A DNA stretch of 64,000 bases from an uncultured Anaerolineae bacterium (lineage in GTDB: Bacteria > Chloroflexota > Anaerolineae > Aggregatilineales > Ch27). The stretch spans positions 9,978 through 73,977 of the forward strand of contig CAZHMJ010000001.1 in assembly GCA_964533805.1 (NCBI GenBank), read 5' to 3'. Below the pieces are notes generated by a model. That model did not search any database, was not told the DNA's origin, and was given only the letters and a program-made list of their open reading frames with translations. How positions within the stretch are numbered: position 1 is the first letter of the stretch; the number at the start of each line of letters is the position of its first letter. Positions 27,743-63,684 of this stretch are shown here, piece by piece. A program made the translations under genes and the position numbers.

Positions 27743-29590
27743 TCAAAGCTGCGCGATTGCCAGCGCCAGGGATCGGCGAAATTCCACGGAGAAGAATGCC
27801 TCCCATACCGCCGCCACCTGCTGGCGCGCCTCGGTGAGCCAGGCCTCCTGGACGCGGGCCAGGTCCGCCAGGGCGGGATCGATCTGGGGCTTCTTGCGCT
27901 TGCGCCCGTCGCTCCCGGCCTGGGTGTAGAAGGTCTCGCGCACAGCTTCGCCCAGGATCATGTCCCGGAGTTGCGATTCCAGGGGCTGTACAACCGCCAG
28001 CACCTCGCCCAGTTCTTCGCCCAGCAGGCTGCTCATAAACTGCAGGAGGTGATGGAAGCTCGCAATCGCGCGCCACTGGCTCTCGAGATCCAGGGTCGTG
28101 ACATCCATATCCCGCAGCGCGTTGAACTCCGACCAGAACATGAGGGCGGCCTGCCGCCCGATCCGGGCTTCCGCCGCCTCGCCGGGGAATACCCCCAACC
28201 CTGGCTGGCGAGCGAAGGCCATCAGGTCGGTCAGGAACTGGCGATAGCGCCGCCCCGACAGATCGCGCGCCAGTTCATCGAAAGCAGCCTCGGCCTGCGC
28301 CCGGCGCGCCTGGGCGGCCGCCCGAAACTCCTCCGCCAGGACGGGGTCCACAGGTGCATTGTCCGCCGAGCGAACCAGAATCGCCGCCGCCTGCCGGGTG
28401 AGCGCTTCGGTCGCATGGTTGGTCAGCCAGCGCGCCGTTTTCTTGAAATCGCCCACGACGGACGCATCGTAATACCGTCCAAAGAGCTTCAGGACGGCGT
28501 GCAGCCGGCTCGCATCGCGATCGAACAGGGCCAGCGAATCCCAGTGACCGTCCCGGAGCTGTTCGGCGTGCTGCTCCACCAGGGTCATATAGTGGCCCAT
28601 CAGAATGCGTCCGGCCTCAGGCAGGGTCAAATCCGGCTCCAGGCGGGCGCGCACCATATCCGCGCGCACCGCGTCCATCGGATAGCGCTCCCAGACCTGG
28701 ACCGCCATCTCGTACTGGTTCTCCCAAAGATCGGACAGTTTCTCCGCGCGAGCCGCGTTGAGGTCCGAGTCAGCCCCTTCGATCACGATCAGGACCTGGC
28801 TTTCGTTAAGCCGGATTTCGCCGATCGTGGTCGTCTGGGTCTGGCTGAAGTCCAATCCATCCGCGATCCGCAGGATCGCGGACAGGCCCAGCACCTCGCG
28901 CTGCTGCCGGCCATCCAGATCGGCAAACAGCGGCTCGCGATCCGGACGAACCTTTTTGCGGTGGAACGCGGTCAGCAGAGCCAGCATGCGCTGCTCGTCG
29001 ATCGAGAATCCCTGGATCGGGTGCTTCAGGATGATGTCCCGGCCGATCTCGTGGTGATTATCCGGGCTAAGCTCGTAAGCGACGTTGTGAACCAGGGCGG
29101 CGGCTTCGAGCACGTCCTTGAGCCGGGTCGGGAAGCAATGCGCAGGCAGCAGGGCATCGAACAACTGCCCGGCGAGCCGGGCCACATGCCCGGCGTGGGC
29201 CAGGTCGACGCTGTAGCGCCGGCACAAGTCTTCCAGACTGACCGGTCCGGCCGTGTTTTGTCCGGCACCGGCATCCTTCGGCGGCATGTCCTCGGCCAGC
29301 GCCTCAAGCACCTGGGTGACGATGGCACTGCCCGGCGGCGCCTTCTGCGCCTCGCCAAACAGAGCCAGCCCGACCTTATAGTAGCGCCGCAGCCAGTAGC
29401 GCACCCCGGAATGGCTCAATCCCACGTTCGCGCCTATGGTTCGAAAGGCCATCCCCTGCCCGGCCAGCAGCACGATCCGGGCCGGACGGCGCAAGCGCGC
29501 CGGACCCGCCTGGGCGACATTTTCTAGCCGATGAATTTCCTGGGACGAAAGAGAAGGAAAGAGGTATGATCGCCGCTTGCTGCCAGTCAT
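27743..29590 (-). CDS. IS630-type HTH plus Ppx/GppA-C-terminal-like HD domain plus CHAD domain protein
   Basis: N-terminus LRRPARIVLLAGQGMAFRTIGANVGLSHSGVRYWLRRY (HTH). Middle LEAAALVHNVAYELSPDNHHEIGRDIILKHPIQGFSIDEQRMLALLTAFHRKK (HD-like). C-terminal CHAD-like helical repeats. ATG 29590 is preceded by GGAG; the ORF-track start is 29620. Confidence 0.75.
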   Translation of the reverse strand: MTGSKRRSYLFPSLSSQEIHRLENVAQAGPARLRRPARIVLLAGQGMAFRTIGANVGLSHSGVRYWLRRYYKVGLALFGEAQKAPPGSAIVTQVLEALAEDMPPKDAGAGQNTAGPVSLEDLCRRYSVDLAHAGHVARLAGQLFDALLPAHCFPTRLKDVLEAAALVHNVAYELSPDNHHEIGRDIILKHPIQGFSIDEQRMLALLTAFHRKKVRPDREPLFADLDGRQQREVLGLSAILRIADGLDFSQTQTTTIGEIRLNESQVLIVIEGADSDLNAARAEKLSDLWENQYEMAVQVWERYPMDAVRADMVRARLEPDLTLPEAGRILMGHYMTLVEQHAEQLRDGHWDSLALFDRDASRLHAVLKLFGRYYDASVVGDFKKTARWLTNHATEALTRQAAAILVRSADNAPVDPVLAEEFRAAAQARRAQAEAAFDELARDLSGRRYRQFLTDLMAFARQPGLGVFPGEAAEARIGRQAALMFWSEFNALRDMDVTTLDLESQWRAIASFHHLLQFMSSLLGEELGEVLAVVQPLESQLRDMILGEAVRETFYTQAGSDGRKRKKPQIDPALADLARVQEAWLTEARQQVAAVWEAFFSVEFRRSLALAIAQL

Positions 29591-29774
29591 CGGAGAACTC
29601 CTGATGGACGGGTGCCGCAAACTTGGGACTGCACTGAATCACAAAGTGCCGCTATCGCTTACTGATAAGTATAGTCCAAGTTGCCAAAAGATCGAACTCC
29701 CTAAGCTGTGCAGTCTGAACTCACGTCTGTCCGGTCAAATACTGTAGAATGGGATATTCGCCCAGGGGGAAACC

Positions 29775-34015: not shown

Positions 34016-34696
34016 CTAGCCCTTGCTGGGGATGTAGCGGCTGATCGCGCCCGCCAGGTTCGAAAGCGGCATCGTCTGGAGCCACACCCGACCCGGTCCG
34101 GTCAGGGTCGCCAGGAACAGCCCTTCGCCGCCGAACAGCACATTACTCACGCCGCGCACCATCTCGATATCGTAATCCACCGTCGGCTCGTACATGGCGA
34201 TGTGGCCGGGATCGACCTTGATCCGCTGGCCCTGCCCAAGCTGATACTGTTGGACTTCGCCTGAGATCTCGACGAACGCAATGCCGGGGCCGGTCAGCTT
34301 CTGGAGGATGAAGCCTTCGCCGCCGAACAGGCCCGTGCCCAGGCGCTTGCGGAAGTGCATTTCCATCTGCACGTCATCCTCCGCACACATGAAAGCGTCC
34401 TTCTGGGCGATGATCGAAAAACCGGCCTGAAGCGGGACGGGGATAATCGCGCCGGGCGCTTCCGGCGTGAACACAATCGTGGCTTCCGGAGCCTTGCAAG
34501 TGTATGTCGTCAGGAACAGCGATTCACCCGCCAGCGCACGGCCGAGCATCTTGCCCAGCCCGCCCCGCCCGCTGGTCTGCATCTCGATCCCATCGCTCAT
34601 CCAGGCCATCCCACCCGACTCGGTATAGATCGCTTCCCCCTGCGTCAGGCGGATTTCCAGCATGGGTAAAGTCGTGCCTTTGATTTCGTATTTCAT
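34016..34696 (-). CDS. AIM24/TIGR00266 (DUF124) family protein, copy 2
   Basis: 226-aa ORF MKYEIKGTTLPMLEIRLTQGEAIYTESGGMAWMSDGIEM... with FGGEGFILQKLTGPG and FGGEGLFLATLTGPGRVWLQ, typical of the family. Confidence 0.8.
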   Translation of the reverse strand: MKYEIKGTTLPMLEIRLTQGEAIYTESGGMAWMSDGIEMQTSGRGGLGKMLGRALAGESLFLTTYTCKAPEATIVFTPEAPGAIIPVPLQAGFSIIAQKDAFMCAEDDVQMEMHFRKRLGTGLFGGEGFILQKLTGPGIAFVEISGEVQQYQLGQGQRIKVDPGHIAMYEPTVDYDIEMVRGVSNVLFGGEGLFLATLTGPGRVWLQTMPLSNLAGAISRYIPSKG

Positions 34697-34812: not shown

Positions 34813-35550
34813 CTAGAGGTTATCCAGGATGCGCGTGATCCCACCCAGCGTATCCCCGCCCCGTTCAGCGCTGCCGCCGGTGTGGATGTAGCGCGACAGC
34901 GCGCCCGCCAGGTTCGAAAGCGGCATCGTCTGGAGCCACACCCGGCCCGGCCCGGTGAGAGTCGCCACGAACAATCCCTCGCCGCCAAACAGGATGTTGC
35001 TGGCGCCGCGCACCATTTCGATGTCGTAGTCCACCGTCGGCTCGTACATGGCGATATGGCCCGGATCGATCTTGATCCGCTGGCCGGCGGCGAGCTGGTA
35101 CTGGTGCACCTCGCCCGCGATCTCGACGAAGGCCGTGCCCGGCCCAGTCAGCTTTTGAAGGATGAATCCTTCCCCGCCAAAGAGGCCCGTGCCCAGGCGC
35201 TTGCGGAAGTGCATCTCGATCTGGACGTCGTCTTCCGCGCACATGAAGGCATCCTTCTGGGCAATCATCGAGTACCCCGCCTGGAGTGGCACGGCGACGA
35301 TATGCCCCGGCGCCTCCGGGGTGAACACAATCGTGGCTTCCGGAGCCTGGCAGGTGTACGTCGTCAGGAACAGTGATTCGCCCGCCAGCGCCCGGCCGAG
35401 CATCTTGCCCAGGCCGCCGCGCCCGCTGGTCTTCATCTCGATCCCGTCGCTCATCCAGGCCATGCCGCCCGATTCGGTATACAACGCCTCGCCCTGGCGC
35501 AGCCGGACTTCCAGCATCGGCAGCACGGTTCCCTTAATCTCGTATTCCAC
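34813..35550 (-). CDS. AIM24/TIGR00266 (DUF124) family protein, copy 1
   Basis: 245-aa ORF. GTG start 8 nt after GGAGA. Near-identical to the downstream copy over most of its length, with a distinct C-terminal tail. Confidence 0.8.
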   Translation of the reverse strand: MEYEIKGTVLPMLEVRLRQGEALYTESGGMAWMSDGIEMKTSGRGGLGKMLGRALAGESLFLTTYTCQAPEATIVFTPEAPGHIVAVPLQAGYSMIAQKDAFMCAEDDVQIEMHFRKRLGTGLFGGEGFILQKLTGPGTAFVEIAGEVHQYQLAAGQRIKIDPGHIAMYEPTVDYDIEMVRGASNILFGGEGLFVATLTGPGRVWLQTMPLSNLAGALSRYIHTGGSAERGGDTLGGITRILDNL

Positions 35551-35566: not shown

Positions 35567-38500
35567 TTAGATATCCGTCTCGCGGGCTGCGGACGGCGAC
35601 TCTGCGCCTGAGACCGTGACCTCTACCCAACGCACCTCGATCACGCCCGGTAGCGCCCGAAGCTCCGCCATCAGTCCCTCGCTGAATTGGGTCGTATGAT
35701 TCGGAAACTCCATGTTGTATTCCTGACTGCCCTGGCAAATGGCAATCTGGAACCGATCGCCCCCATGGAACTCGGTCAGGCGACCATGGATGCGCCGCAA
35801 GCGGCGGCGGTCCACATCGACGTCCTCCGACCGCGCGAAACGGATCACGATCAGCTTGCGCGCCTCGATCGTGGACGCGGCCCGGTAGGAGGGCATGTCC
35901 TCCTCGCTGACATCCGCCCAGACCGGCCGTCCACCGGGCGTCGCCGGGCGCGGCGATGCGGGCTGCGCCGGCCGGGAGGGCATGAATTCCCCCGACCGGG
36001 ACGGCGCAGGACTGCGCCGCGCTTCGCCCGGTTCGGCAGCCCAGGCGGGCGGGCCTTCCGCCGCGCGCGTACTCACGCCCGTCGCCCGTGGCGTGGCCTC
36101 GGCGCGTGGTTGAGCAGACGCCGCCGCGGGCCTTTCCGCCCTGGGTTGAGCCGCCTCCGCCTGGGTAGCCACAGGCTGGACAATCTCGGCCACCGGTTGA
36201 GGGATAAGGTCCGGCGCATCAACAACGCCTCCCGCGCTGGCCGGCGCAATGTTCGGGCGGGGGGCCGGTTCCCAGGGCGGCGGCGCGGGGGGCAGATCGG
36301 ACTCGTCCATCCCGACATCGTCTAAAGGAGGCAGTGGGCCTTCTTCCGGTGGCTCCTCGCCATTCCCCAGCCAGCCCGGCAGCGCCTCCAGATTGCGGAG
36401 GAGCTGGGCCGTCATCGGCGCAGCCTCTTCGCTGACCGTGAAATTCGTGGAAACATTATCGGCGACGATCTGCGCCTCGCCCCGGCTGGCGTCTACCTTG
36501 CCGCTGACCCGGATGACCGCCCCTTCCTGCACCATGTCGGCACACTGGCGCCAGATGCGCGGGAAGAGCACCACGTCGATCTGGCCCTGCAAATCCTCCA
36601 GGGTAATGATCGCCATCGAGTCACCCTTCTTGGTGATCAGGGTGCGCAGCGACTCGACCAGCCCAACCACGGCCACCGGCCGGTCATGCAGGGCCTCGGC
36701 ATCGTCCTTGATCTCCCGGCTCTGGGTGATGTTGCTGTACGGGTTCTGGATGTAGCCCAGTACCGAATCCAGCGGGTGGCTGGTGACGTACAGGCCCACC
36801 AGTTCCTTCTCCCAGTTGAGCATTTCGCGCTGGCTGGCTTCCGGCATCTCCGGCAGATTGCCCAGCATGTCCTCACCCGAATCGAACTGAACGCCGGTCA
36901 TCGCCCCGAACAGGCTGAGCTGGCCGACATCCCTGGCCCGGTGCTGCTCGGCGCTAAAACTCAAGATACGATCCAGCGCGCCGAGAAGTTGCGGTCGCGT
37001 GCCAAACGCCGCGAGCGCCCCCACCCGGATCAGGCTCTCCAGGGCGCGTTTTTGGACGATCCGCAGGTCAACCCGGCGGCTGAAGTCGCCCAGGTCCTTG
37101 AACGGCCCGCCCTCCGCCCGCACGGTGATGATGTGTTCCATCGGCACGGTGCCGGCATTCTTGATAGCGGCCAGGCCGTAGCGAATCCCGCGCCGCCCGT
37201 CGTCCCGCGTCTCGATGGTGAAGTCCAACCCGCTGCTGTTGACGTCCGGCGGCAGGATTGGGATGCCCATCCGCCGGCATTCGGCCGTGAAATGCGACAC
37301 CTTGCTGGTGTCGTCGCGGTGGACGGTCAGCAGCGCGGTCATGTATTCGACCGGGTAATGCGTCTTGAGGAACGCCGTCTGGCAGGTGATCACCGCGTAG
37401 TCGGCGGCATGCGAGTTGTGGACGATGAAGTCGTTGGCGATGAAGTTGTGGCTGTCCGCCACTGTCAGATCGTAGGTCGGCATTTCTCCAACGTATTCGA
37501 TCGAGGCAACTTCATCCCAGGCCACCGCCTGGCGGTCGCTTCCTGTGACGGTGACGCGGTCGCCCACTGAGAGCTTGCCGAGCCATACCCAACCATCCGG
37601 CGTCAGGAACGGATGATTGGCCGTGGCTTCAATCTGACGACCGAGACGGCTCGTCAGACGATAAACGGGTTTGATCCCGTTCTCGTGGACCTGGGTCACG
37701 GCCCCGTGGCCCAGGTGGAGGGTGTCCACGTCACAGGTCAATGTATACTCGATCGTCGCCGCGCCGGAGGCCAGATCGCCAATCCGCACCAGCCGTCCTG
37801 TCACCGCGTCGACCACTTCGACATGGGCTGGCAGACACTTGTTGAAACCATACCGCGCGAAGAACTCGATGTCGTCGAAAATCGCCCCAGCCGATTCCGG
37901 ATCAACGCCGAACTCCGGCCCCTTCTCGAGGAAAATCCCGCGGTGCTTGAGAAGATCTTTCTCCTTCTTCTTGGAGACAGCGCGCCGCATCAGGTCGGCG
38001 TCACCGAGCGAATACCCGAACAGATCGGCCGCGATCTGCATGATCTGTTCCTGGTAGACGATGATGCCATACGTCTCTTCCAGGATGGGCTTGAGCAAGG
38101 GGTGTTTGTAGATGACTTCCTCGTCCCCATGCAACCGCTGGTTATAGGTCGGGATGTATTCCATCGGCCCCGGCCGGTAAAGCGAGATCGCCGCGACGAT
38201 GTGCTCGAACGTCTTGGGCTTCATCTCGGTCAGCATCTTACGCATCCCGGAGCTTTCGATCTGGAAGACGCCCACCGTCTCGCCACGCCCGATCAGGTCG
38301 AAGGTCTGCTCGACCTGGCGGGTCAGCTCCGGGTTGTCCGGATCGGGCCGGTAGGGGATGTTCTCCATCGTGTAATGCACCCCGTGGTATTTCTCCACCA
38401 GCTCACACGCCTTGCGCATGATGGTCAGAGTGGAGAGGCCCAGGAAGTCCACCTTCAGCAGCCCGATCGACTCGCAGGTCTCCATGTCGAACTGGGTAAC

Positions 38501-40150
38501 CATCTTGACCGGCACGTCGTCGGCGCTGCCCTTAGTCGGGCGGTGAAGCGGGATGTACTCGTCCAGCGGCTTGTCGGAGACGATCACGCCGGCGGCATGG
38601 GTGCTGGCGTGGCGGACGACCCCTTCCAGGTTGCGAGCCACATCGATCAGCCCCTTGACGGTTGGGTCGGACGCATAGGCTTCCTTCAACTCCGGAATCG
38701 CCTTGCCCGGCTCGTCGCCCAGGGCGTCACTGAACTTGACCGGCTTGGCCCCGCTGGGCAACATCCCGGCGATCCGGTTGACTTCCGGCAGGGGCATGTC
38801 CAGGGCGCGGCCCACGTCCCGGATGGCGGCCTTGGAGCCCATCGTCCCGAAGGTGATGATCGCCGCGACTTTGTCCTCGCCGTACTTGCTGGAGGCATAC
38901 TCGATCATCTCCGGACGGCGGTCGTCGGGGTAGTCCAGGTCGATGTCGGGCATCGACACGCGACCGGGGTTCAGGAAGCGCTCGAAGATCAGGCTGTTCT
39001 TGAGCGGGTCGATATTCGTGATGCCCAGGCAATAAGCCGCCACGCTGCCCGCGCCGGAGCCGCGCACGTTCCACCAGATATCGGCGTGCCGGGCGAATTC
39101 GCACAGGTCCCACACGATCAGGAAGTAGGTATCGAACCCCATGTCATGGATGATCCCCAGCTCGTAGCTGAGCCGGTTGATCACCACCGGGTCGTCGGCC
39201 CGCGCCCCGTAGCGCCACTGGAGGCCCTTCTCGCACAGGTGGCGCAAATAGGTCTGCCCGTCGAAGCCCTCCGGCACCGGAAAGACAGGCAGGTGGTACC
39301 CTTCCTTCTCCAGGCTGACATCGCACATCTCCGCGATGCGCAGCGTGTTGGTCAGGGCTTCCGGGACCTCGCCGAACAGCGACCACATTTCCTCCGGTGA
39401 GCGGAGGTGGTAGCTGGGATCGGTCATACGCATCCGGTCGGGGTCGTTCTTGAGGCTGCCCGTCTGGATGCACAGCAGTGTGTCGTGCGGATCGAAGTCT
39501 TCCTGGCGGATGTAGTGGGTGTCATTGGTCGCCAGGAGGGGCACCTCGGCGTGGTGCTGGTTGGCGACCAGCCACCTGTTCCACTTGTGCAACTCCGGGA
39601 TGTCGTGGTGCTGGAGCTCCAGGAAGAAATTCTCCTTGCCAAAAACCTCCTGGTACCAGCCAATTGTCTCGTGCAGGCGAGTATCGCCCCGATCTTCCTC
39701 GAACATGCGCGGGAGTTCCGCCGCCAGGCAGCCCGTGGTGACGATCAGGCCCTCGGCGTGCTGTTCGAGGAGCGCCTTGTCCACCCGGGGCCGGTAGTAG
39801 TAGCCGCGCAACTGCGACTCGCTGGCCAGCTTGAGCAGGTTCTTGTAGCCGGTCATGTTTTTGGCCAGCAGCAGGAGGTGATACGGGCGGCTGTCCAGGG
39901 CGGGATCGCGGTCTTCCATCCCGCGCCGGGCGAGATAGGTTTCCATCCCGATGATCGGCTTGATTCCGGCCGCTTTGGCCGCCCGGTAGAATTGCAGCAC
40001 GCCGAACATCGCGCCGTGATCGGTGATCGCCACCGCGGGCATGCCCAATTCGGCCGTGCGCGCGACCAGCTTGTCGATCCGGCTCAGGCCGTCCAGCAGC
40101 GAGTATTCGGTATGGACGTGCAGATGGACAAAACTCTTGTCTTCACTCAT
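35567..40150 (-). CDS. dnaE: DNA polymerase III alpha subunit, intein-containing, with long C-terminal extension
   Basis: ATG 40150 gives the PHP N-terminus MSEDKSFVHLHVHTEYSLLDG. Polymerase core motifs (PDIDLDY, GLLKVDFLGL) and an OB fold. The conserved YGFNKSH motif is interrupted by an intein. Confidence 0.95.
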   Translation of the reverse strand: MSEDKSFVHLHVHTEYSLLDGLSRIDKLVARTAELGMPAVAITDHGAMFGVLQFYRAAKAAGIKPIIGMETYLARRGMEDRDPALDSRPYHLLLLAKNMTGYKNLLKLASESQLRGYYYRPRVDKALLEQHAEGLIVTTGCLAAELPRMFEEDRGDTRLHETIGWYQEVFGKENFFLELQHHDIPELHKWNRWLVANQHHAEVPLLATNDTHYIRQEDFDPHDTLLCIQTGSLKNDPDRMRMTDPSYHLRSPEEMWSLFGEVPEALTNTLRIAEMCDVSLEKEGYHLPVFPVPEGFDGQTYLRHLCEKGLQWRYGARADDPVVINRLSYELGIIHDMGFDTYFLIVWDLCEFARHADIWWNVRGSGAGSVAAYCLGITNIDPLKNSLIFERFLNPGRVSMPDIDLDYPDDRRPEMIEYASSKYGEDKVAAIITFGTMGSKAAIRDVGRALDMPLPEVNRIAGMLPSGAKPVKFSDALGDEPGKAIPELKEAYASDPTVKGLIDVARNLEGVVRHASTHAAGVIVSDKPLDEYIPLHRPTKGSADDVPVKMVTQFDMETCESIGLLKVDFLGLSTLTIMRKACELVEKYHGVHYTMENIPYRPDPDNPELTRQVEQTFDLIGRGETVGVFQIESSGMRKMLTEMKPKTFEHIVAAISLYRPGPMEYIPTYNQRLHGDEEVIYKHPLLKPILEETYGIIVYQEQIMQIAADLFGYSLGDADLMRRAVSKKKEKDLLKHRGIFLEKGPEFGVDPESAGAIFDDIEFFARYGFNKCLPAHVEVVDAVTGRLVRIGDLASGAATIEYTLTCDVDTLHLGHGAVTQVHENGIKPVYRLTSRLGRQIEATANHPFLTPDGWVWLGKLSVGDRVTVTGSDRQAVAWDEVASIEYVGEMPTYDLTVADSHNFIANDFIVHNSHAADYAVITCQTAFLKTHYPVEYMTALLTVHRDDTSKVSHFTAECRRMGIPILPPDVNSSGLDFTIETRDDGRRGIRYGLAAIKNAGTVPMEHIITVRAEGGPFKDLGDFSRRVDLRIVQKRALESLIRVGALAAFGTRPQLLGALDRILSFSAEQHRARDVGQLSLFGAMTGVQFDSGEDMLGNLPEMPEASQREMLNWEKELVGLYVTSHPLDSVLGYIQNPYSNITQSREIKDDAEALHDRPVAVVGLVESLRTLITKKGDSMAIITLEDLQGQIDVVLFPRIWRQCADMVQEGAVIRVSGKVDASRGEAQIVADNVSTNFTVSEEAAPMTAQLLRNLEALPGWLGNGEEPPEEGPLPPLDDVGMDESDLPPAPPPWEPAPRPNIAPASAGGVVDAPDLIPQPVAEIVQPVATQAEAAQPRAERPAAASAQPRAEATPRATGVSTRAAEGPPAWAAEPGEARRSPAPSRSGEFMPSRPAQPASPRPATPGGRPVWADVSEEDMPSYRAASTIEARKLIVIRFARSEDVDVDRRRLRRIHGRLTEFHGGDRFQIAICQGSQEYNMEFPNHTTQFSEGLMAELRALPGVIEVRWVEVTVSGAESPSAARETDI
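37415..37837 (-). mobile_element. mini-intein (141 aa, no homing-endonuclease domain) in DnaE
   Basis: Extein junctions ...ARYGFNK | CLPAHVEVVD...TANHPF...YDLTVADSHNFIANDFIVHN | SHAADYAV. Cys1 codon at 37837..37835, terminal Asn codon at 37417..37415, +1 Ser. TxxH block B and terminal HN are present. Excision restores GFNKSHAA. Confidence 0.9.
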
Positions 40151-40219
40151 GAAGTGATCCAGGGTTGCTACCAATACACGGCATTTTGTGGGGAACACGA
40201 AACAGCACAGTCTGGCTGC

Positions 40220-40228
40220 ATTATAGCA
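40220..40228 (-). promoter_or_regulatory. extended -10 promoter for dnaE
   Basis: The minus strand reads TGCTATAAT (TGn plus TATAAT), about 70 nt upstream of the dnaE ATG in an AT-richer divergent intergenic region. Confidence 0.45.
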
Positions 40229-40396
40229 CACGTGGTCGGATCGCCGCCCCTGGTTATGGCCGTTTTTGATCAAGTTGAACTTCAGAAAGACATAAGATAT
40301 GATTGCATCAGCACAATCCTTTGTTAAGGATTTGCTTGAGTCTTTTCCAGCGTTTTCGCTTTCTGGGTAAACTTAGAATAACCTTGTGGAGTATCT

Positions 40397-42401: not shown

Positions 42402-42444
42402 AAAAAAAGCGCCGGGAAGGGACATCCTCCCGGCGCTTCTGATT
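42402..42444. terminator. bidirectional rho-independent terminator
   Basis: GC-rich hairpin gcgccgggaagg gaca tcctcccggcgc (42409..42436), flanked by aaaaaaa (42402..42408, a U-run for the minus strand) and ttctgatt. Sits between convergent genes and ends the minus-strand operon. Confidence 0.8.
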
Positions 42445-42457
42445 CGAGCGGCCCGGC

Positions 42458-43321
42458 CTAGCTGTAGGTCACCATTTCCGGCCGGATCTCCGGCTTGCCT
42501 TCAGGGGAGATTCCCAATCGCCCGGCGGGAATCTGGGAGTCGTGAGCGAAGATCAGCAGCGCGTCGCGGTCGAGCGCCCACTGCTGCCAGCGGCGTTTGG
42601 TCTCCAGCGTGACCAGCGGTTCCACATCGTAGGCGCTCATCCAGCCCAGCCGCGCGAACTGGACGGCATACGAGGCCATGTCGCACACGAACAGGGCATG
42701 CTGCCCCTGGCTCTCGAAGCGCACGCTCATGTGGCCGGGCGTATGGCCCGGCGTCCGCACGCCGAATACCCCCGGAGCCAACTCGACCTCGTCCTCGTCC
42801 AGCAGGCGAAGTTGCCCGGTCTGCGCCAGCGGCTCGTAATTGGCCAGGGTGTAGGTCGCCCGCGTGCGCTCGTTAGGGTGCATGGCGTCCTCGAACTCGC
42901 GCCGCAGCACGACATATTCCGCGTTCGGAAAGGTGGGCACGACCTCGCCGGCTTCGTCAAAGCGCGTATTGCCCGCGCAGTGGTCGGCATGCAGGTGGGT
43001 ATCGATCACCAGGTCGACCTCCTCCGGGCGAATACCCAGCCGGGCCAGCCCATCCAGCAGGCCGCCTTCAGGCCGCTCCAGTCGCCAGATCGCGCGCATC
43101 TTGGGCGTGAGCTTGTCACCCATCCCGCTATCGATCACGATCGTCCTGCCGCCGGAGCGGAGAACAAGATTGTGCAGGGTCATCGGCACCTGGTTATCGG
43201 AGTCAGGCATGAGGATCGACTGATACAACGCCCGCGGAACCAGGCCCCACGCCCCGCCGGCATCCACCCTGACCCAACCGTCGTTCACCAGGTGGATTTC
43301 CAGATCGCCCAACCGGATCAT
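42458..43321 (-). CDS. MBL-fold metallo-hydrolase (lactonase-like subgroup)
   Basis: HxHxDH motif THLHADHCAGN, with later GHTPGH and a D/H ligand pattern. The ATG overlaps the add stop (ATGA). Confidence 0.8.
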   Translation of the reverse strand: MIRLGDLEIHLVNDGWVRVDAGGAWGLVPRALYQSILMPDSDNQVPMTLHNLVLRSGGRTIVIDSGMGDKLTPKMRAIWRLERPEGGLLDGLARLGIRPEEVDLVIDTHLHADHCAGNTRFDEAGEVVPTFPNAEYVVLRREFEDAMHPNERTRATYTLANYEPLAQTGQLRLLDEDEVELAPGVFGVRTPGHTPGHMSVRFESQGQHALFVCDMASYAVQFARLGWMSAYDVEPLVTLETKRRWQQWALDRDALLIFAHDSQIPAGRLGISPEGKPEIRPEMVTYS

Positions 43322-44403
43322 CGGCTTCCACTCTCCGCGGTCTGCACCCCATCCTCAAACACGCCCAGCGAATCCAACTCTGTCCGCAGGGACTCCACCA
43401 GGGCCGCTTTGTCCGCCGCAGGCAAGAACGAAGCGGACGCGGCCCGCAGGATCGCCTGGCGCAGCATACCCAGCGTGAATCCGAACGATTGCATGACCAA
43501 CAGATATTCGTCGCTCAGCTCAATGTTGCTAATGGCCGGATCGTCCGTGTTGATCGTGTATCCCAGATTGAGGTAGCTCAGATCGAGGAGTGGGTGGAGC
43601 GCCAACTCGCGCACCACGCCTGTCTGAACATTGCTGGTCGGGCATACTTCGAAAATGGTGCCCCGCTCGCGAGCCAATCCAACCGTCCACGAATCCTCGA
43701 CCACGCGCACACCGTGCCCGATCCGGTCGGTGTACAGGTTCTCGATCGCGTCCCGGATGTTGTCTGGCCCGTGCCATTCACCGGCATGAATCGTGATCCC
43801 CAGCCCTTCGCGCTTGGCGGACAGGAACACCGGGCCGAAGGGGCGAGCCGGGAAGCCTACCTCCCGCCCGGCCAGATCGAGCCCCAGCACGCCCCGCTCC
43901 CGGTGACTCAGCGCGGCCTGCATCGCCTCCAGCGCGACCTCCAGGGGTTCGTGGCGGTTGATGGACACGATCAGGCCCACCTGGATGCCAAACTCCGCCG
44001 CCGCCGCGCGGGCCGCGTCCGCGACCCAGCCCACCGTATCGATCATGGGGAAATGCATCCGCGAAGCCAGCGCGTACGGCGTGAAGCGCAGTTCCAGATA
44101 GCGGACGTGATCGGCCGCCGCATCTTCCACGACCTCGCGAGTGATCCGCCTCACGATGTCGGGCGAACGATAGAAGGTGCGCAGCAAGTCAAATTTGCCC
44201 AGAAAACGATCGAGGGTGCGGGGATCGCCAGGCATCATCTGAACGTAGGGACGCAGCGTCTCCACGTCGTAGCTGGGCAGCGGGATATGGTGCTTACGGG
44301 CCACCTCGACCAGCGTGGACAGGCGAATCGACCCTTCCAGATGGCGGTGGAGATCGACTTTCGGCAGGGCTTGGATGAGGACGCGTTGGTTGTCGCTGGT
44401 CAT
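43318..44403 (-). CDS. add: adenosine deaminase
   Basis: LPKVDLHRHLEGS, ITIHAGE and NTDDP motifs of the adenosine/AMP deaminase family. The ATG overlaps the kinase stop (ATGA). Confidence 0.88.
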   Translation of the reverse strand: MTSDNQRVLIQALPKVDLHRHLEGSIRLSTLVEVARKHHIPLPSYDVETLRPYVQMMPGDPRTLDRFLGKFDLLRTFYRSPDIVRRITREVVEDAAADHVRYLELRFTPYALASRMHFPMIDTVGWVADAARAAAAEFGIQVGLIVSINRHEPLEVALEAMQAALSHRERGVLGLDLAGREVGFPARPFGPVFLSAKREGLGITIHAGEWHGPDNIRDAIENLYTDRIGHGVRVVEDSWTVGLARERGTIFEVCPTSNVQTGVVRELALHPLLDLSYLNLGYTINTDDPAISNIELSDEYLLVMQSFGFTLGMLRQAILRAASASFLPAADKAALVESLRTELDSLGVFEDGVQTAESGSR

Positions 44404-46970
44404 GGGGCTGGCTGTTCCTGAAAGCGAGGCAGGCGCAGGGTAAACGTGCTGCCCTTGCCATGCTCGCTGCTGACGGCGATGCTTCCCTGATGGGCGTCGA
44501 TCACACGCTGAACGATGGCGAGACCAATCCCGGAACCGCCCAAAACAGTCCGGGCCGGGTCTTTGACCTGATAGAAGCGTTCGAAGATTCGCGCCAGATA
44601 TTGTGGCTCGATCCCGATTCCGGTATCGACGACCGCGATCTCGATCGTGTCGCCATCGTCCAGCAGGTGCGTCCGTAGCGTGATCGTGCCCCCATCCGGG
44701 GTGAACTTGACCGCGTTGCCAAGCAGGTTATCAATAGCCTGGTTCAGGCGGCTGCGATCCCCATGGACGATGAAAGGCTCGTCCAGGATTTCGGATACAA
44801 ACCGGAGCGCCCGGTTGCTATACACCACGCGCAGCGCGTCGACCGCCTGGCGTGCCAGGGCATTCATGTCCACCCGCTCGCGCACCAGGGTGGCTTCGCT
44901 GATCTGCTCCAGCGAGACCACGTCTGCGATCAGACGCTGGATCACGTCGGCCTTGTCGCCAATGATCCGCAAGGCTTCCTGCTGGTCATCCGTGACTGGC
45001 CCCATGGCGCTATCTTGCAGCAGGCCCACATACCCCTTGATATAGGTCAACGGGTTGCGCAGCTCGTGGGACAGATTTTGAATCAGCTCCTCGCGCAGCC
45101 GTTCCTGAAGCTTGAGTTCCTGGTTGGCCTCCGCGAGCTTGACCGAACGATCAAGCTCGACCTGGTACAGGCGCGCGTTTTCCAGGGCCGCGGCGAGCTG
45201 GGCGGCCGCGATGATCAGCACGCGCTCATGATCGGGGGTGAAGGCGTCGGGAACCAGACTGTCCAGGTTCAGCGCGCCAATCACCCGGCCCTGAAAAGTC
45301 ACCGGCACGGCCAGCACACTCCGTACCTGGGGGTCGAAAATCAATTGAGAGGGGTCCGCGTACACGTCCGGCACATACATTGGTCGTCCGCTGGCGACCA
45401 CCTGGCCCACGATGCCCTCGCCCGGCCGGAAACGGGCCTGCTCCTGCCAGCGCGGCTTGATCCCGACCGCCGCCTTGATGTGGATTTCCTGCCGTTTCTC
45501 GTCCAGGAGCGACACCACGCAGGCCCGGCAGTCGAAAATCTCGCGCATCTTGTGGACGACCATCTGCAACAGATCGTCGCTGGTCAGATGCTCGGTCACC
45601 TGTTGGGCCAGCGTGTAAAGCGCCTCCACTTCCTCGAAGCGCTGGAGGAGCGAGCCGCCAAATTGCAGGTTCTCGACCGCGATGGCCGCCTGATCCGCCA
45701 TCAGACTCAGCGCGCGCCGCTCGTGCTCGCGCACCAGATGAGGCTCACGGTAGAGCAGCAGCAGCACACCATAATGCACCCCCGACCGGCTCAGCGGGCA
45801 GCCCGCGATGACGGCCGGCAGCCAGTCGAAATCGTCCGCGGCAACCCGATCCGGCTGGGGGGCATCCACGATACACACCCCACCCTGCCCATCCACGAGC
45901 ATCACCACGCTGCCCGGCACGGGATCGCGGCGGTCGTGGAGGGGGCCGTCCACGCCAACCCCCGCGCCAAAGCGCAGTCCGGTCGTGAGCTGGTCGCGCA
46001 CGTACAGGCGCACTTCATCCGGCCGGATGAGCTCGCTGACCGCGTCGACCACGATCTGGGCCAGGCCCTCGAAGCTGGTCATGCTGGTCAACTGCGGGGT
46101 AATTACCTGGAGCGCGGCCAGAACTGCCAGACGATCGGCCGTCTGGCGGTCCAGCCAGGCGTTCTTGAGCGCAATCGCGACCTGTTGGCCAACCAGAGTC
46201 AGAAAATCAAGGTCATCCAGGGTGTACACGTCTGGCAAGTTCGACTGGACGGAGAGAACCCCGACCGCCTCCCCACCCGCCACCAACGGCACCATCATGT
46301 AGGAACGCGGTGTCGATCCAATAATCACCGGCTGGACAGGCAGAGTCTCCCGCTCGGAATCCCTGATCAGGAGACTGCGCTGGTGAGTCAAAACCCAGCC
46401 CACCAGCCCATGCGACGGAAATTGCCCCGGAGGCGACTCGATCGGCCGGCCGGCCTCGATGCCATGCCCAAACTCAATCAGGTCGGTTTCGGCCTCGTAA
46501 CTGGCCAGATAGAAGCTATCGACCGGAAAGAGACCGGCCAGAGTCTCCCGCACGTGGCCCAGAACATCATCCAGTTTGCCATCCGCCAACGCCTCGCTAA
46601 TGGCGTGCAGGGCCGCATAATAGGCTGGCATGTCAGCACCGGCACGCGGCGTGCACGTGACCCATAGATCGTCGCTCTCTGGGACAGCCCGGACCGTCAC
46701 CCAGACCGGTTGAGTGGCATGGACGCTGCTGCACAGCGTGGCCGGATAGTGGCCAGCCTGCACGCGCGCATCATCCACCGCGGTTCGCCACCAGGTCGCG
46801 AAGCTCTGGCCACCCAGCGTGAGGATCGCCGCCAGCCCGCCCGCATCGAGTTCCGATATCCGCGTGGACGCGTCCAGGACCGAGCCGTCCGCCTGAACCC
46901 GCAGCGTCAGGATCGGCTCCTCCTGGGTGGATGCGCCCTGCTCAACTGAGGAATTTGCCTGGTGTCCCAT
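44400..46970 (-). CDS. cytoplasmic multi-GAF sensor histidine kinase
   Basis: Three GAF-like segments. HisKA H-box LSHELRNPLTYIKGY. HATPase N/G boxes NLLGNAVKFTP, DTGIGI, GSGIGLAIV. No TM segments. Start is uncertain: ATG 46970, or TTG 47027 which would overlap the upstream gene. Confidence 0.88.
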   Translation of the reverse strand: MGHQANSSVEQGASTQEEPILTLRVQADGSVLDASTRISELDAGGLAAILTLGGQSFATWWRTAVDDARVQAGHYPATLCSSVHATQPVWVTVRAVPESDDLWVTCTPRAGADMPAYYAALHAISEALADGKLDDVLGHVRETLAGLFPVDSFYLASYEAETDLIEFGHGIEAGRPIESPPGQFPSHGLVGWVLTHQRSLLIRDSERETLPVQPVIIGSTPRSYMMVPLVAGGEAVGVLSVQSNLPDVYTLDDLDFLTLVGQQVAIALKNAWLDRQTADRLAVLAALQVITPQLTSMTSFEGLAQIVVDAVSELIRPDEVRLYVRDQLTTGLRFGAGVGVDGPLHDRRDPVPGSVVMLVDGQGGVCIVDAPQPDRVAADDFDWLPAVIAGCPLSRSGVHYGVLLLLYREPHLVREHERRALSLMADQAAIAVENLQFGGSLLQRFEEVEALYTLAQQVTEHLTSDDLLQMVVHKMREIFDCRACVVSLLDEKRQEIHIKAAVGIKPRWQEQARFRPGEGIVGQVVASGRPMYVPDVYADPSQLIFDPQVRSVLAVPVTFQGRVIGALNLDSLVPDAFTPDHERVLIIAAAQLAAALENARLYQVELDRSVKLAEANQELKLQERLREELIQNLSHELRNPLTYIKGYVGLLQDSAMGPVTDDQQEALRIIGDKADVIQRLIADVVSLEQISEATLVRERVDMNALARQAVDALRVVYSNRALRFVSEILDEPFIVHGDRSRLNQAIDNLLGNAVKFTPDGGTITLRTHLLDDGDTIEIAVVDTGIGIEPQYLARIFERFYQVKDPARTVLGGSGIGLAIVQRVIDAHQGSIAVSSEHGKGSTFTLRLPRFQEQPAP

Positions 46971-46993
46971 ACCGGCTCGAACGCTCACTGTGT

Positions 46994-47299
46994 CTAGCCC
47001 CTGCGCTCGCCGAACAACCAGCTCCAATACTTCCAGGCGGCCGCCACGCCGATGCTCACGCCCAGCGCGAAAGTCAAGGCATAGGCCACCTCGAGGTCAA
47101 CCGTCCTGTTTCCGAGGGTCAGCAGCCGGAACACCGTGCCGCTGATCACCAGTCCCGCCGCCACATAAAACCAGCGATAGTAAGGCGGGGTCTTGGTGAC
47201 CGCGCCCAGACGCTGGCTCAACAGGCCCAGGATTGTGAGCGCGACCGCAACCGACGCCGGGCCTAGCCCTCCGAGCAAGACCAGCAGACTCTCGCCCAT
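46994..47299 (-). CDS. small 3-TM membrane protein (hypothetical)
   Basis: ATG 47299. MGESLLVLLGGLGPASVAVALTILGLL...YYRWFYVAAGLVISGTVF...AYALTFALGVSIGVAAAW. Layout is similar to the gene just upstream. Confidence 0.5.
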   Translation of the reverse strand: MGESLLVLLGGLGPASVAVALTILGLLSQRLGAVTKTPPYYRWFYVAAGLVISGTVFRLLTLGNRTVDLEVAYALTFALGVSIGVAAAWKYWSWLFGERRG

Positions 47300-47313: not shown

Positions 47314-47601
47314 CTAACGACCGGCGGTCATCCGACGGTACAGAGACACACACAACCAGAGCAAGATGGCGCCGCCTAGCGCCAGCAGCAAATCGGCAAT
47401 CGGCTCACCGCTGGTCCGCGTCATCCGGGCATACTGGGCCGCGGCCAGCCCAAACAAGACAATCGGGAGGCTATACAAGGCATAGCGGGTCCGCTCACCC
47501 GTCAAATTCTGGTAGAAACGGGCCACCATCAGCAGGATCGCCAGCAACACCGCCAGCGGAAACCAGGCATAGATCGTTAAAAACTGAACCAAGCCGGCCA
47601 T
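47314..47601 (-). CDS. small 3-TM membrane protein (hypothetical)
   Basis: 95-aa ORF MAGLVQFLTIYAWFPLAVLLAILLMVA...YSLPIVLFGLAAAQY...LLLALGGAILLWLCVSL. Starts 11 nt after the ATPase stop. Confidence 0.5.
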   Translation of the reverse strand: MAGLVQFLTIYAWFPLAVLLAILLMVARFYQNLTGERTRYALYSLPIVLFGLAAAQYARMTRTSGEPIADLLLALGGAILLWLCVSLYRRMTAGR

Positions 47602-47612
47602 CCTTCCGCTCG

Positions 47613-48395
47613 TTATTCGGCGTGAGTCGTGCGCGCCCGCCCGAACGCCTCTCCGAATGCGTCGGCCGGACTGGGCGTCGGACTGCCACTCATCAGGCCA
47701 TGCTGCCCTTTGAATCGGGCCTGCACCACCGCCCCCTGGCTCGTGATCTCATACTGCCGGATGTCACGGGCATGATCGGAGCCGCGCTGCTTCAGCACGA
47801 GGAGCGCCTTGCGCATCATGCTGTCGATTTCGACATAGCGCAGCAGAAGGTAGCTATCCACGAGGAAAGCCAGCTCGTGCGCCGCGTTGGGATCGCCGCC
47901 AAAAAGGCTGCCCGACTCGCGCGTCAACAGGATCGTCAGGCCAAGGCGTTTCAGCCCGTTGACGAACCCGTAGACGGTTTCGCGCAGGGCCGCCCGATCG
48001 GCGACGATGCGCTCGAAATGCGAGATGCTGTCGACCAGGATACGCTGCGCGCCGATCGCCGCGGCGTGTTGCTCCAGCATGCCGCCGACCCGCTGCAACT
48101 CGTTGAGGCTGATCTCCGGGCTGCTCATCACCACGCGGAGCTTGTTCTCCGCCTCCAGACCGGGCAGGTCCCAACCGAAACCGGCGGCGTCGTGATAGTA
48201 CTGGCGTGGGAATTCCTCAAAGGTGAGGATGATACCCGGCTCGTCGCAGACCGTGACCCCGTGATGGATGAACTGCATGCCCAGGGTAGTCTTGCCCGTG
48301 CCCGGCGCGCCTTCGATCAGGTTGGCCGTCTGCGGAAAGAAGCCCCCCTGCAGCATCGGATCCAGTCCGGGAACCCCCGTCGAGATACGAGTCAT
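47613..48395 (-). CDS. single-domain KaiC-like / RecA-superfamily ATPase (COG0467-type)
   Basis: ATG 48395. STGVPGLDPMLQGGF, Walker A GAPGTGKTTLGMQF, catalytic ILTFEE, Walker B RILVDSIS. About 260 aa, i.e. one KaiC/RadA-like domain. The ATG overlaps the upstream TGA (ATGA). The ORF-track start at 48674 is unlikely. Confidence 0.82.
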   Translation of the reverse strand: MTRISTGVPGLDPMLQGGFFPQTANLIEGAPGTGKTTLGMQFIHHGVTVCDEPGIILTFEEFPRQYYHDAAGFGWDLPGLEAENKLRVVMSSPEISLNELQRVGGMLEQHAAAIGAQRILVDSISHFERIVADRAALRETVYGFVNGLKRLGLTILLTRESGSLFGGDPNAAHELAFLVDSYLLLRYVEIDSMMRKALLVLKQRGSDHARDIRQYEITSQGAVVQARFKGQHGLMSGSPTPSPADAFGEAFGRARTTHAE

Positions 48396-48769
48396 GTCTG
48401 CATCCCCCGGATGACATGGTACATCGCCCGCACACGGAACTGCCGGTCTTCGCACGCCTGGCGAAAACGCCGTACCAGGTCCCGCATGGTCGGATCGGGC
48501 GCCAGTCCGAAGATGGGCTGGTCGGGTGTGCCAGAGACGGCCAGCACGCCGCTCTCCGCCAGAGCGTCCAACTCCCGGCGAATGACCTGCGACTCGCGGC
48601 CGACATAAGTGGCAATCTTGTCCGCCGTATCGACCGTGTACGGGTTGTCGTGGAAGAAGCTCACCAGATCCCACTTGATGAAAGAATTGACCCGGATTCG
48701 AATAAACGCCAGCAGATCGGGATCAATATCATCCATCAGGTGGGATGCCCCCGTGTTGTGCTGATCCAT
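48392..48769 (-). CDS. small hypothetical protein, possible winged-helix partner of the KaiC-like ATPase
   Basis: ATG 48769 lies 9 nt after GAGAGGA. 125 aa. FIKWDLVSFFHDNPYTVDTADKIATYVGRESQVIRRELDALAESGVL resembles a wHTH. No family recognised. Confidence 0.6.
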   Translation of the reverse strand: MDQHNTGASHLMDDIDPDLLAFIRIRVNSFIKWDLVSFFHDNPYTVDTADKIATYVGRESQVIRRELDALAESGVLAVSGTPDQPIFGLAPDPTMRDLVRRFRQACEDRQFRVRAMYHVIRGMQT

Positions 48770-48792: not shown

Positions 48793-51603
<2,811 letters not shown>

Positions 51604-61734: not shown

Positions 61735-63684
61735 ATGATCACGCACGTTCTGTTTATCGACAGCGATTCGAGCGCGATGACCCGGGTGAAAGACGCCCTG
61801 GAAAAGGCCGGCAACTTCGAGGCCAGCGTCTTCACGACCGGGCTGGCCGCCCTCGAACACGCGGAGAAGAACCCGCCTTCGGTGGTGGTCGTCTCGCTGA
61901 ATGTGCAGGATGTCAGCCCGGATGAACTGGTCACGGGCCTGCGCGGCCTGTACGCGGCGCTCCCGGTCCTGCTGCGCGCGCCGGACGATGCCGATCCCCT
62001 GTTGATCGACCGCCTGAAGCCGCAGGGCGTGCTGTATGGCAGCTACTCGACTCGCGTCCTGGTTCCGATGATCGAGGAAGCCCTGACGGCTGATCTCGCC
62101 GCCCCGGCGCCTGAGCAGGCTGGTCCGGACGTGGTCGCGGACGACCACGAGAGTCTACTGGCCGGTGCGCCGCCCAGTGATGATCTGGCCGAGTTTGGTG
62201 AAGTCCTCAAGGCCATCGAACCGGGCTTGCAAGCCGAGGAACAGGACACCTTCAAGACCCTGGTCGAATCGCTGCGCGCCCCGGTCGAGAAGCCTTCGCT
62301 GCTCAAGCGCAGCAAATCCAAATCCCGTTGGGCCGACCCGGAAGCCGAAGCCAGCGCAGCTCCTCCGGCGGAGGCCGCGCCGCCCGCTTCGGACCATCTG
62401 TTCGAGAAGCTGGCCGCGGAAGAGCCACCCTTCCCGACGCTGGAAGATTCCGGTACGGTGCGCGACCTGATCTCGATGACCGATCCGGAATTCGAGCAGA
62501 CTCCCCCCGGCACCGCCGTCGACGTGCCGGATGAGATGATCGGCGGTCTTCACGACCAGCCGCTTGGCGTGGCCGAACAGGAGCTGCTGCAAGCCCTGGC
62601 CGATGCCAGCGCCGAGCCGCGACCCGAATCGCGCCGTCCTGCGGTGGATGGTGAAGCGTCCAAAAAGCGCACGCCGCCCTTTGTCGTCGACGAGGTCACT
62701 CCCTTCCGCAAGGATGCCGCGACGCTGGCGCTGGAACTCACCCAACACGTGGTCGGGTCCACGGCGCAGGCGATCATCCTGCTGAAAGACAATGCCGTGG
62801 TCACGGCGGCCGGGTCGCTGAACGAACAGGACATCGCGGTCCTGGCGGAGGCCATCGACTGCCGGACGGTCAACAGCCGGAGCGGCACCCAGATCAAGTT
62901 CGTCGCGTTGCGCACGACCAACACCAACTACATGGTCGTAGCCGTGCCCACCCTGGACGAGATGGTGCTGGTCCTCGTCTCGGCGGAGAACACGCACCTG
63001 GGCACGATCCGCCAGGAAGCGCTGGGCCTGGCTGCTGCCCTGCGCAATCCGCCCCAGCCCATCTCCCCAAAAGTCCCTGAGCCGGCCCCGGAGCCGCCTG
63101 AGCCTGGCTTCTTTCGGGAGACGCCCGCGCCGGAGGCCAGCGAGGCGTTCATGGTCATGGCGGCCGAGCCGGATGACACCACCGATTATGGCGTGACCGG
63201 CCGGATCCAGGCCGAGGGGGAAGACGCCGAGCCGCTGCCCACCGAAGCGGAACACGTCGAGCAGCGCGTGGCAGAGACGCGCGAGGCCCCCGAGTCCGCG
63301 CCGCAGCTCGACCCCGCCACCCTGGTCAAATACGCCTGCGCCTGGCTGCTGCGCGATCCCGCAGCCGAACTGGACGAGGAACTGATCCACGCCCTGCCCG
63401 TCTGGCTGGATCAGGTCATCAGTCTCCAACACTGGCTGCCTGAGCAAACCGAGGCCCAGCCGGATTACATCAGCGTCGTGGTCAACGTCCCGCCCGCGAC
63501 CGTGCCCTCCGACATCGTGGCGATCCTCAAGCAGGCGATCGGCCAGCGCATCCTGGCCGCGCGGCCTGAACTGGCCGCCTCGATCGACCAACTGTGGGCG
63601 GATGCCTACTATGCCATCGCGCCGGGCCGTCCGCTGTCCGGCGAAGAAATCAGCCGTTTCATCAGCTATCAACGCGGTTCCTGA
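61735..63684 (+). CDS. multidomain protein: pseudo-receiver plus Roadblock/LC7-like plus degenerate IS200/Y1-transposase-like domain
   Basis: aa 1-118 form a CheY-like fold with Ser at the phospho-acceptor position (VVVVSLNV) and KP retained. aa ~326-437 are Roadblock-like (VVGSTAQAIILLKDNAVVTAAG...MVLVLVSAENTHLGTI). aa ~528-647 resemble IS200 TnpA (YACAWLLRD...PDYISVVVNVPPATVPSDIVAILKQAIGQRI...LWADAYYAIAPGRPLSGEEISRFISYQ). Confidence 0.65.
   Translation: MITHVLFIDSDSSAMTRVKDALEKAGNFEASVFTTGLAALEHAEKNPPSVVVVSLNVQDVSPDELVTGLRGLYAALPVLLRAPDDADPLLIDRLKPQGVLYGSYSTRVLVPMIEEALTADLAAPAPEQAGPDVVADDHESLLAGAPPSDDLAEFGEVLKAIEPGLQAEEQDTFKTLVESLRAPVEKPSLLKRSKSKSRWADPEAEASAAPPAEAAPPASDHLFEKLAAEEPPFPTLEDSGTVRDLISMTDPEFEQTPPGTAVDVPDEMIGGLHDQPLGVAEQELLQALADASAEPRPESRRPAVDGEASKKRTPPFVVDEVTPFRKDAATLALELTQHVVGSTAQAIILLKDNAVVTAAGSLNEQDIAVLAEAIDCRTVNSRSGTQIKFVALRTTNTNYMVVAVPTLDEMVLVLVSAENTHLGTIRQEALGLAAALRNPPQPISPKVPEPAPEPPEPGFFRETPAPEASEAFMVMAAEPDDTTDYGVTGRIQAEGEDAEPLPTEAEHVEQRVAETREAPESAPQLDPATLVKYACAWLLRDPAAELDEELIHALPVWLDQVISLQHWLPEQTEAQPDYISVVVNVPPATVPSDIVAILKQAIGQRILAARPELAASIDQLWADAYYAIAPGRPLSGEEISRFISYQRGS

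Follow-up and report, generated by a model that had tools for sequence, protein, structure and literature searches.

Eight co-directional genes form a cluster on the minus strand of the window analysed here, a 64,000-nucleotide (nt) stretch of contig CAZHMJ010000001.1 from an uncultured bacterium of the class Anaerolineae (order Aggregatilineales), whose numbering is used throughout. The cluster is headed by secA and continues with p125, a gene for a KaiC-like ATPase, two genes for small membrane proteins (TMa and TMb), a sensor histidine kinase gene, the adenosine deaminase gene add, and a gene for a metallo-beta-lactamase (MBL)-fold hydrolase, followed by a terminator-like hairpin (Table 1). 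Its last three genes had been singled out in a first-pass annotation as an orphan kinase translationally coupled to two hydrolases in a dedicated sense-and-degrade module. All of the sequence-level claims made about this trio were reproduced, but comparison with other Anaerolineae suggests a different reading: the trio is probably the tail of the secA-led cluster, in which add and the MBL gene would be housekeeping genes of the lineage and the kinase gene an optional insert in a variable slot.

From secA to the MBL gene, the intergenic gaps are 23, -4, 11, 14, 23, -4 and -4 nt, so small that they leave no space for strong internal signals. The ATGA overlaps described earlier are present between the kinase gene and add (44403-44400) and between add and the MBL gene (43321-43318), and a third one joins p125 to the KaiC-like gene (48395-48392). 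On a rough gene map based on GC content at third codon positions (GC3), four of the 33 co-directional junctions in the window are ATGA junctions; since three of these four lie inside the block, the tight packing is a real local feature and not the norm of the window. The block had been counted as seven genes, and its shared direction stands while its size does not, as secA lies 23 nt upstream and brings the number to eight. The strong terminator reported after the MBL gene is also there, with a stem of 15 pairs (nine of them G-C) and a 6-nt loop, then TTTTTTTCTG. It is the sole strong terminator-like site within 41-52 kb; weak sites total eight versus 5.9 in shuffled sequences, which is no excess. 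RNA control of the cluster was rejected, as the whole window gave no Rfam match at gathering score (no tRNA, riboswitch or small RNA).

Table 1. Features of the secA-led cluster and domains of its kinase, in window coordinates (aa, amino acids).
Feature	Position	Strand	Description
secA	48793..51603	-	Pfam SecA_DEAD, P-loop_SecA, SecA_SW, SecA_PP_bind, SEC-C; heads cluster
p125	48392..48769	-	125 aa; predicted winged helix; no Pfam family
KaiC-like ATPase	47613..48395	-	260 aa; single domain; RecA superfamily; PF06745, E 2e-44
TMa	47314..47601	-	95-aa small membrane protein; hydrophobic residues 1-34 and 66-89; no family match
TMb	46994..47299	-	101-aa small membrane protein; hydrophobic segments; no family match
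Sensor histidine kinase	44400..46970	-	856 aa; PAS-like + three GAF + HisKA + HATPase_c
PAS-like N-terminus of kinase	about 46913..46581	-	Predicted (AlphaFold2 + Foldseek)
GAF1	46574..46167	-	Pfam
GAF2 (weak)	46079..45672	-	Pfam
GAF3	45587..45180	-	Pfam
HisKA	45095..44898	-	Residues 626-691; E 2e-15; phospho-His635 at 45068..45066
HATPase_c	44762..44424	-	Residues 737-849; E 2e-30
add, adenosine deaminase	43318..44403	-	361 aa; PF00962, E 8e-85
MBL-fold hydrolase	42458..43321	-	287 aa; lactonase-like branch; Lactamase_B, E 8e-20
Intrinsic-terminator-like hairpin + T run	42405..42440	-	Closes cluster 3' of the MBL gene

The conservation of this arrangement was surveyed in species-representative genomes scanned with an alignment of adenosine deaminase (Add), taking the 80 loci most similar to add among more than 600 pattern matches. 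All 80 belong to genomes or metagenome-assembled genomes (MAGs) of Anaerolineae, the closest being a MAG of Aggregatilineales. secA is found upstream of add in 71 of them, and the remainder are mostly truncated contigs. The gene directly before add is secA itself at 36 loci (median gap 18 nt), TMb at 23 (median gap 57 nt; mostly secA-p125-TMa-TMb-add-MBL, with neither the KaiC-like gene nor the kinase) and the kinase at 18, where it comes in three arrangements, as part of the full cassette, behind TMa-TMb only, or by itself. Over 24 loci, those from the kinase search included, the median kinase-add gap is 21 nt. The five genes between secA and add occupy a variable slot, and its partial combinations all occur: p125-TMa-TMb lacking both the KaiC-like gene and the kinase (about 22 loci), TMa-TMb-kinase lacking p125 and the KaiC-like gene, the kinase alone, and the KaiC cassette without the kinase. 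The last is exemplified by the complete 5.35-Mb genome CP070811 (secA-p125-KaiC-TMa-TMb-add-MBL). Among 75 informative species, the kinase is present in 18. Because the deaminase is the ordinary copy located after secA in nearly all Anaerolineae, the kinase is best regarded as an optional insert.

The downstream side of add tells a similar story for the MBL gene, which follows add at nine kinase-bearing and 18 kinase-less loci and is lacking at eight and 35, respectively; a Fisher test not corrected for phylogeny gives p=0.25, so that the presence of the MBL gene is taken to be independent of that of the kinase. Other lineages have argS after add, or the MBL gene and then deoC, which loosens the tie proposed between kinase, add and MBL. 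A neighbor-joining tree of Add groups the sequences by gene architecture, which argues for vertical inheritance, and because kinase-bearing clades lie on both sides of its midpoint root, an old arrangement with repeated losses is favored. Across the class (loci L013-L092), secA and add are neighbors or else parted only by the variable cassette. Joining secA and add in one operon is not known to serve a function.

Close relatives of the kinase are few, with eight clusters above about 30% identity at high coverage. The neighborhoods of seven relatives were inspected, and six of them have the full secA-to-add array (L008 without a KaiC-like gene call); the seventh relative, of 1198 aa, is in a secA-kinase-add arrangement only. 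Where the contig is long enough, the MBL gene comes after add, except at the P0008 loci L011 and L012, which have argS, and deoC comes after the MBL gene in L008 and L009. The arrays retained in these relatives indicate that the linkage is conserved and outlasts turnover of the outer flanks. The earlier request for a check of neighborhood conservation across genomes thus has an answer: the kinase orthologs that were looked up have add directly downstream, with the exception of L093, so it is not the case that the linkage lacks conservation in every relative. L093 comes from a metagenome scan with the kinase alignment, in which the patterns caught the generic H-box and 75 of 80 loci were unrelated kinases, L093 and L095 alone being informative. 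It carries a kinase ortholog after secA and no add nearby. In L093, the next gene (9000-10367) codes for a fusion of an AAA_16 ATPase with an OmpR-type Trans_reg_C DNA-binding domain; the protein lacks a receiver and is a possible output partner.

Kinases encoded directly before add match one another at 300-400 bits, compared with at most 220 bits for most generic GAF kinases, and are therefore considered as one orthologous, fast-evolving group. Identity to relatives is 33-53% for the kinase, 51-67% for Add and 62-72% for the KaiC-like ATPase. Different, large multi-GAF kinases are also encoded directly upstream of secA at five kinase-less loci (L022, L029, L034, L036 and L037), but their pairwise scores are those of generic relatives, and they were rejected as relocated orthologs. 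Altogether, the kinase gene is orthologous among these genomes, evolves fast, and has been inherited vertically with many losses; it appears to be dispensable for the rest of the array.

At the protein level, the first-pass description of a soluble kinase with three GAF-like domains holds. Its open reading frame (ORF) starts with an ATG at 46970, with an alternative in-frame GTG at 46988. Pfam places the GAF domains at residues 133-268, 298-433 and 462-597; when the three regions were scanned separately, each matched GAF models independently, with 63.9, 29.5 and 85.3 bits for the GAF_2 model, the middle one being weak against a cut-off of 28.6. No transmembrane segment was detected (maximal Kyte-Doolittle mean over 19 residues of 1.41, none reaching 1.6), and for lack of a hydrophobic segment the protein is regarded as soluble. 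The H, N, G1, F and G2 boxes of histidine kinases (SHELRNPL with H635, DNLLGNAVKF, DTGIGI, FERFYQ and GGSGIGLAIV) are all present and invariant in the ortholog alignment. For the N-terminus, an AlphaFold2 model built on a six-sequence alignment (mean predicted local distance difference test, pLDDT, 74) has PAS domains as top Foldseek matches, and a SasA-like KaiB-fold N-terminus was rejected on the same data.

The absence of a response regulator from the operon was also borne out. Searches of all ORFs in the window by phmmer with CheY, PhoB and Spo0F gave no receiver domain, and Pfam gave none in the cluster, so the kinase is regarded as an orphan. The sole REC-like Pfam match in the window is a pseudo-receiver about 15 kb away (20.8 bits versus a cut-off of 30.2) with Ser at the phospho-Asp position. 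It forms the N-terminal part of a 649-aa protein (61735-63684, plus strand), in which a long linker of low complexity leads to a C-terminal domain resembling IS200-like Y1 transposases (26.6 bits). Mycobacterium tuberculosis DosS/DosT and cyanobacterial CikA are comparable soluble orphan multi-GAF kinases. The kinase studied here shares with them a cytoplasmic location and tandem GAF domains before HisKA and HATPase_c, but differs by its additional PAS-like N-terminus, its fixed position between secA and add, and the lack of an adjacent regulator or pseudo-receiver.

Add itself has the features of a common adenosine deaminase. It scores above the TIGR01430 equivalog cut-off (280.5 versus 216.55 bits), and in the PDB it matches the Add entries 6n91 and 6n9m best (E 1e-61, full length). 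The HxH, HAGE, GHG and NTDDP motifs are present, and residues H19, H21, H206, E209, H230 and D287-D288 are invariant in the ortholog alignment. Bona fide Add is matched at 212 bits, compared with 125 for the cog1816 adenine deaminase 3ou8 and 131 for the plant N6-mAMP deaminase, and by sequence the protein is closest to enterobacterial Add. An alternative substrate such as cAMP was also considered, as GAF domains bind cyclic nucleotides and the cAMP deaminase CadD belongs to the same superfamily; in the comparison, which covered adenosine, adenine and N6-mAMP deaminases, the best matches were genuine adenosine deaminases. With Escherichia coli-type enzymes, Add shares a single domain of about 360 aa, membership of the amidohydrolase family and the catalytic and metal motifs, whereas its downstream place in a secA-led cluster is lineage-specific. 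The Anaerolineae orthologs aligned also differ from these enzymes in HRHL(D/E)G, where they carry Glu for Asp. At this position (residue 23), HRHLEGS is found in all Anaerolineae orthologs aligned and Asp in E. coli-type and mammalian enzymes; the replaced Asp contacts the ribose 5'-OH. The gene is the lineage's ordinary adenosine deaminase gene, located downstream of secA across the class. The proposal that it serves something other than ordinary purine salvage is thus not borne out, given a syntenic post-secA ortholog throughout the class, standard motifs and a score above TIGR01430.

The MBL-fold hydrolase matches PF00753 at 72 bits (cut-off 22.7) and retains the metal ligands H109, H111, D113, H114, H193, D214 and H260 (HxHxDH plus distal His/Asp/His, from alignment to 3esh). 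Its best PDB match is 3esh (E 2e-33), then OPHC2, MPH, 4-pyridoxolactonase and AiiA. Against the NCBIfam lactonase equivalogs, its scores remain under the cut-offs, with YtnP as best match (160.5 versus 425 bits), then AidB (66.5 versus 360) and AiiA (60.8 versus 375). These scores, all far below the equivalog cut-offs, assign no substrate. The fold, the metal ligands and the best-match branch are shared with the YtnP/AiiA lactonases (Staphylococcus aureus 3esh, Bacillus subtilis YtnP, AiiA), OPHC2/MPH and 4-pyridoxolactonase, but in contrast to the YtnP/AiiA lactonases the gene studied here is fixed beside add and not in a quorum-sensing context. The MBL gene accompanies add in a lineage-specific way, whether the kinase is there or not.

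Among the other slot genes, p125 had no match in Pfam or NCBIfam, and its 40 homologs are all unnamed or hypothetical proteins. Its AlphaFold2 model (pLDDT 90) gave top Foldseek matches that are all ArsR/SmtB/MarR winged helix-turn-helix (wHTH) proteins (E 2e-3 to 2e-2, TM-score 0.4-0.58). The modeled p125 is a winged helix that resembles ArsR/SmtB/MarR proteins in fold only. The KaiC-like ATPase aligns to both the CI (119 bits) and CII (131 bits) domains of KaiC and has a Walker A motif (GAPGTGKT), the FEE motif and catalytic Glu residues, with Ala and Phe at the S431/T432 equivalents. Circadian KaiC proteins have about 500 aa in CI and CII, the S431/T432 phospho-sites and a kaiB partner with or without kaiA. 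By comparison, the protein studied here is a single 260-aa domain without these sites, no KaiA or KaiB family match was found among the cluster genes, and PF06745 is the one circadian KaiC feature that it shows. More than 120 protein clusters are related to it at 62-72% identity, which makes it about as conserved as SecA, and its sampled contexts all lie between secA and add. The gene is always preceded by p125, the two being adjacent in every KaiC-bearing locus. Makarova and colleagues reportedly proposed in 2017 that archaeal single-domain KaiC-like ATPases are signaling hubs. TMa and TMb were considered as possible paralogs, and this was rejected (BLASTP E 0.59).

The rest of the window consists of ordinary chromosomal genes, among them gyrA, birA, genes for propionyl-CoA carboxylase and methylmalonyl-CoA mutase, dnaE with an intein, fpg and a miaB-like gene. 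A defense island was rejected, as the PADLOC match concerned only the generic deaminase domain of CARF-ADA and trivial P-loop and HATPase fragments. In dnaE (DNA polymerase III alpha; 35567-40273, minus strand), the Intein_splicing match spans residues 830-953, and the relatives L006, L008 and L009 have larger dnaE inteins with a LAGLIDADG domain, or none. Two tandem AIM24-family genes (34016-34696 and 34813-35550, minus strand) are located downstream of dnaE, and two tandem thymidylate-kinase-like genes (23232-23930 and 23943-24695, minus strand) are found beside genes for a CYTH protein and the methylmalonyl-CoA mutase. Two CHAD-domain proteins are also encoded, at 13910-15205 (plus strand) and 27743-29620 (minus strand), one with a helix-turn-helix domain and the other fused to Ppx/GppA, which suggests polyphosphate-related functions nearby.

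Several explanations of the locus can be weighed against these data. In the sense-and-degrade model, the GAF kinase would sense a purine-derived or lactone-type molecule and form a dedicated module with the coupled Add and MBL. The ATGA overlaps on both sides of add are consistent with it, as are a kinase-add junction that is overlapping or very short in the clade of the window, an adjacency of the two genes kept in three or more architectures and in different orders, and the fact that GAF and PAS are small-molecule-binding folds. Yet add and the MBL gene hold their position and packing in most related kinase-less genomes, and the MBL gene comes and goes independently of the kinase. Moreover, Add is a standard, equivalog-level adenosine deaminase, a kinase ortholog exists without add (L093), the 64 kb yielded no regulator able to couple sensing to transcription of these genes, and no paper in the literature searched brings together adenosine deaminase, a GAF domain, a histidine kinase and an operon. 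The model is thus quite improbable, and neither the gene distribution nor the enzyme sequences nor the regulators inventoried call for it; the locus is better read as conserved synteny than as a sense-and-degrade module for purines or lactones. Still more improbable, to the point of being nearly dismissible, is the idea that the operon passively carries the kinase as a remnant in decay or without function. It would account for an evolution much faster than that of the neighboring genes, for the repeated losses and for a GAF2 barely over the Pfam cut-off, but the 856-codon ORF is intact with a coding-type GC3 of 0.78, and even orthologs with as little as 30% identity keep the H-box His and the N, G1, F and G2 boxes unchanged.

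A further explanation places the functional unit in the cassette between secA and add, made up of p125, the KaiC-like ATPase, TMa and TMb plus the kinase where it occurs. The kinase would then be no true orphan and would act with the KaiC-like ATPase as SasA or CikA does with KaiC, p125 would be the output and TMa/TMb the anchor or input, and add and the MBL gene would be bystanders. This explanation is possible although doubtful. It is consistent with the ATGA overlap and constant adjacency of p125 and the KaiC-like gene, with the presence of the kinase in five of the six KaiC-bearing loci of the add survey, with the SecA-like conservation of the ATPase, with the ArsR/MarR-like wHTH fold predicted for p125 and with the lack of a response regulator within 64 kb. 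In Rhodobacter sphaeroides, a histidine kinase is also encoded within the kaiBC operon, and Chloroflexi are reported to have KaiC homologs (PMC5520375). What the cassette has in common with the KaiC-SasA/CikA systems and with such purple-bacterial operons is a KaiC-family ATPase encoded in a cluster that also has genes for a sensor histidine kinase and for a small wHTH protein. However, since every partial gene combination exists, none of the parts strictly depends on the others; the ATPase cassette is commonly found without the kinase. In addition, the N-terminus of the kinase is PAS-like and not the KaiB/thioredoxin-like fold by which SasA binds KaiC, and the KaiC-like protein lacks the S431/T432 phospho-sites. 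The bolder form of this idea seems unlikely, namely that the cassette is an undescribed signaling system found across Anaerolineae, in which the kinase of some orders would act via the KaiC-like ATPase and the wHTH protein instead of a response regulator, and whose secA-add placement would reflect a link to secretion, membrane, or energy or purine status. The cassette of wHTH protein, KaiC-like ATPase and two membrane proteins, often without the kinase, does appear to be undescribed, since limited searches did not find it in the literature, with or without the PAS-GAF kinase.

The reading of the trio as the tail of a secA-led cluster, with the kinase as an optional insert, is preferred here. 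It agrees with the equal packing of add where the kinase is missing, with the indifference of the MBL gene to the kinase and with the presence of the kinase without add in L093, all of which tell against a kinase-add-MBL unit. The translational coupling is then most likely a compaction within an old transcription unit. Several points weigh against this reading. The survey sample is biased, having been drawn by similarity to add, and gene presence and absence rest on labels given by tblastn with the window proteins against mostly MAG contigs. The Add tree is unbootstrapped, the Fisher test ignores phylogeny, and the inventory of response regulators and add copies spans the 64-kb window only. 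Furthermore, the kinase abuts add wherever the ortholog occurs (L093 excepted), often with an overlap of 4-11 nt, and this abutment outlasts several independent flank rearrangements and neighbor losses. Such persistence also fits with selection for co-expression of the two genes.

Under the preferred reading, the kinase would autophosphorylate on His635 when its PAS and GAF domains sense some cytoplasmic ligand or state, and would probably pass the signal to a response regulator encoded elsewhere and unlinked. It may be co-transcribed with secA, add and the MBL gene through its position, without controlling or depending on either hydrolase. Add would perform adenosine-to-inosine salvage and the MBL enzyme would hydrolyze a lactone or ester-type substrate.

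Translational coupling and a gene trio that looks thematic can mislead, and comparative genomics points here to a secA-add(-MBL) array that is long-lived and contains a variable slot. Two findings remain useful, namely the class-wide linkage of secA and add in Anaerolineae and the cassette in the slot, which is a reasonable target for work on non-circadian KaiC-family ATPases or on signaling in a poorly cultured phylum.

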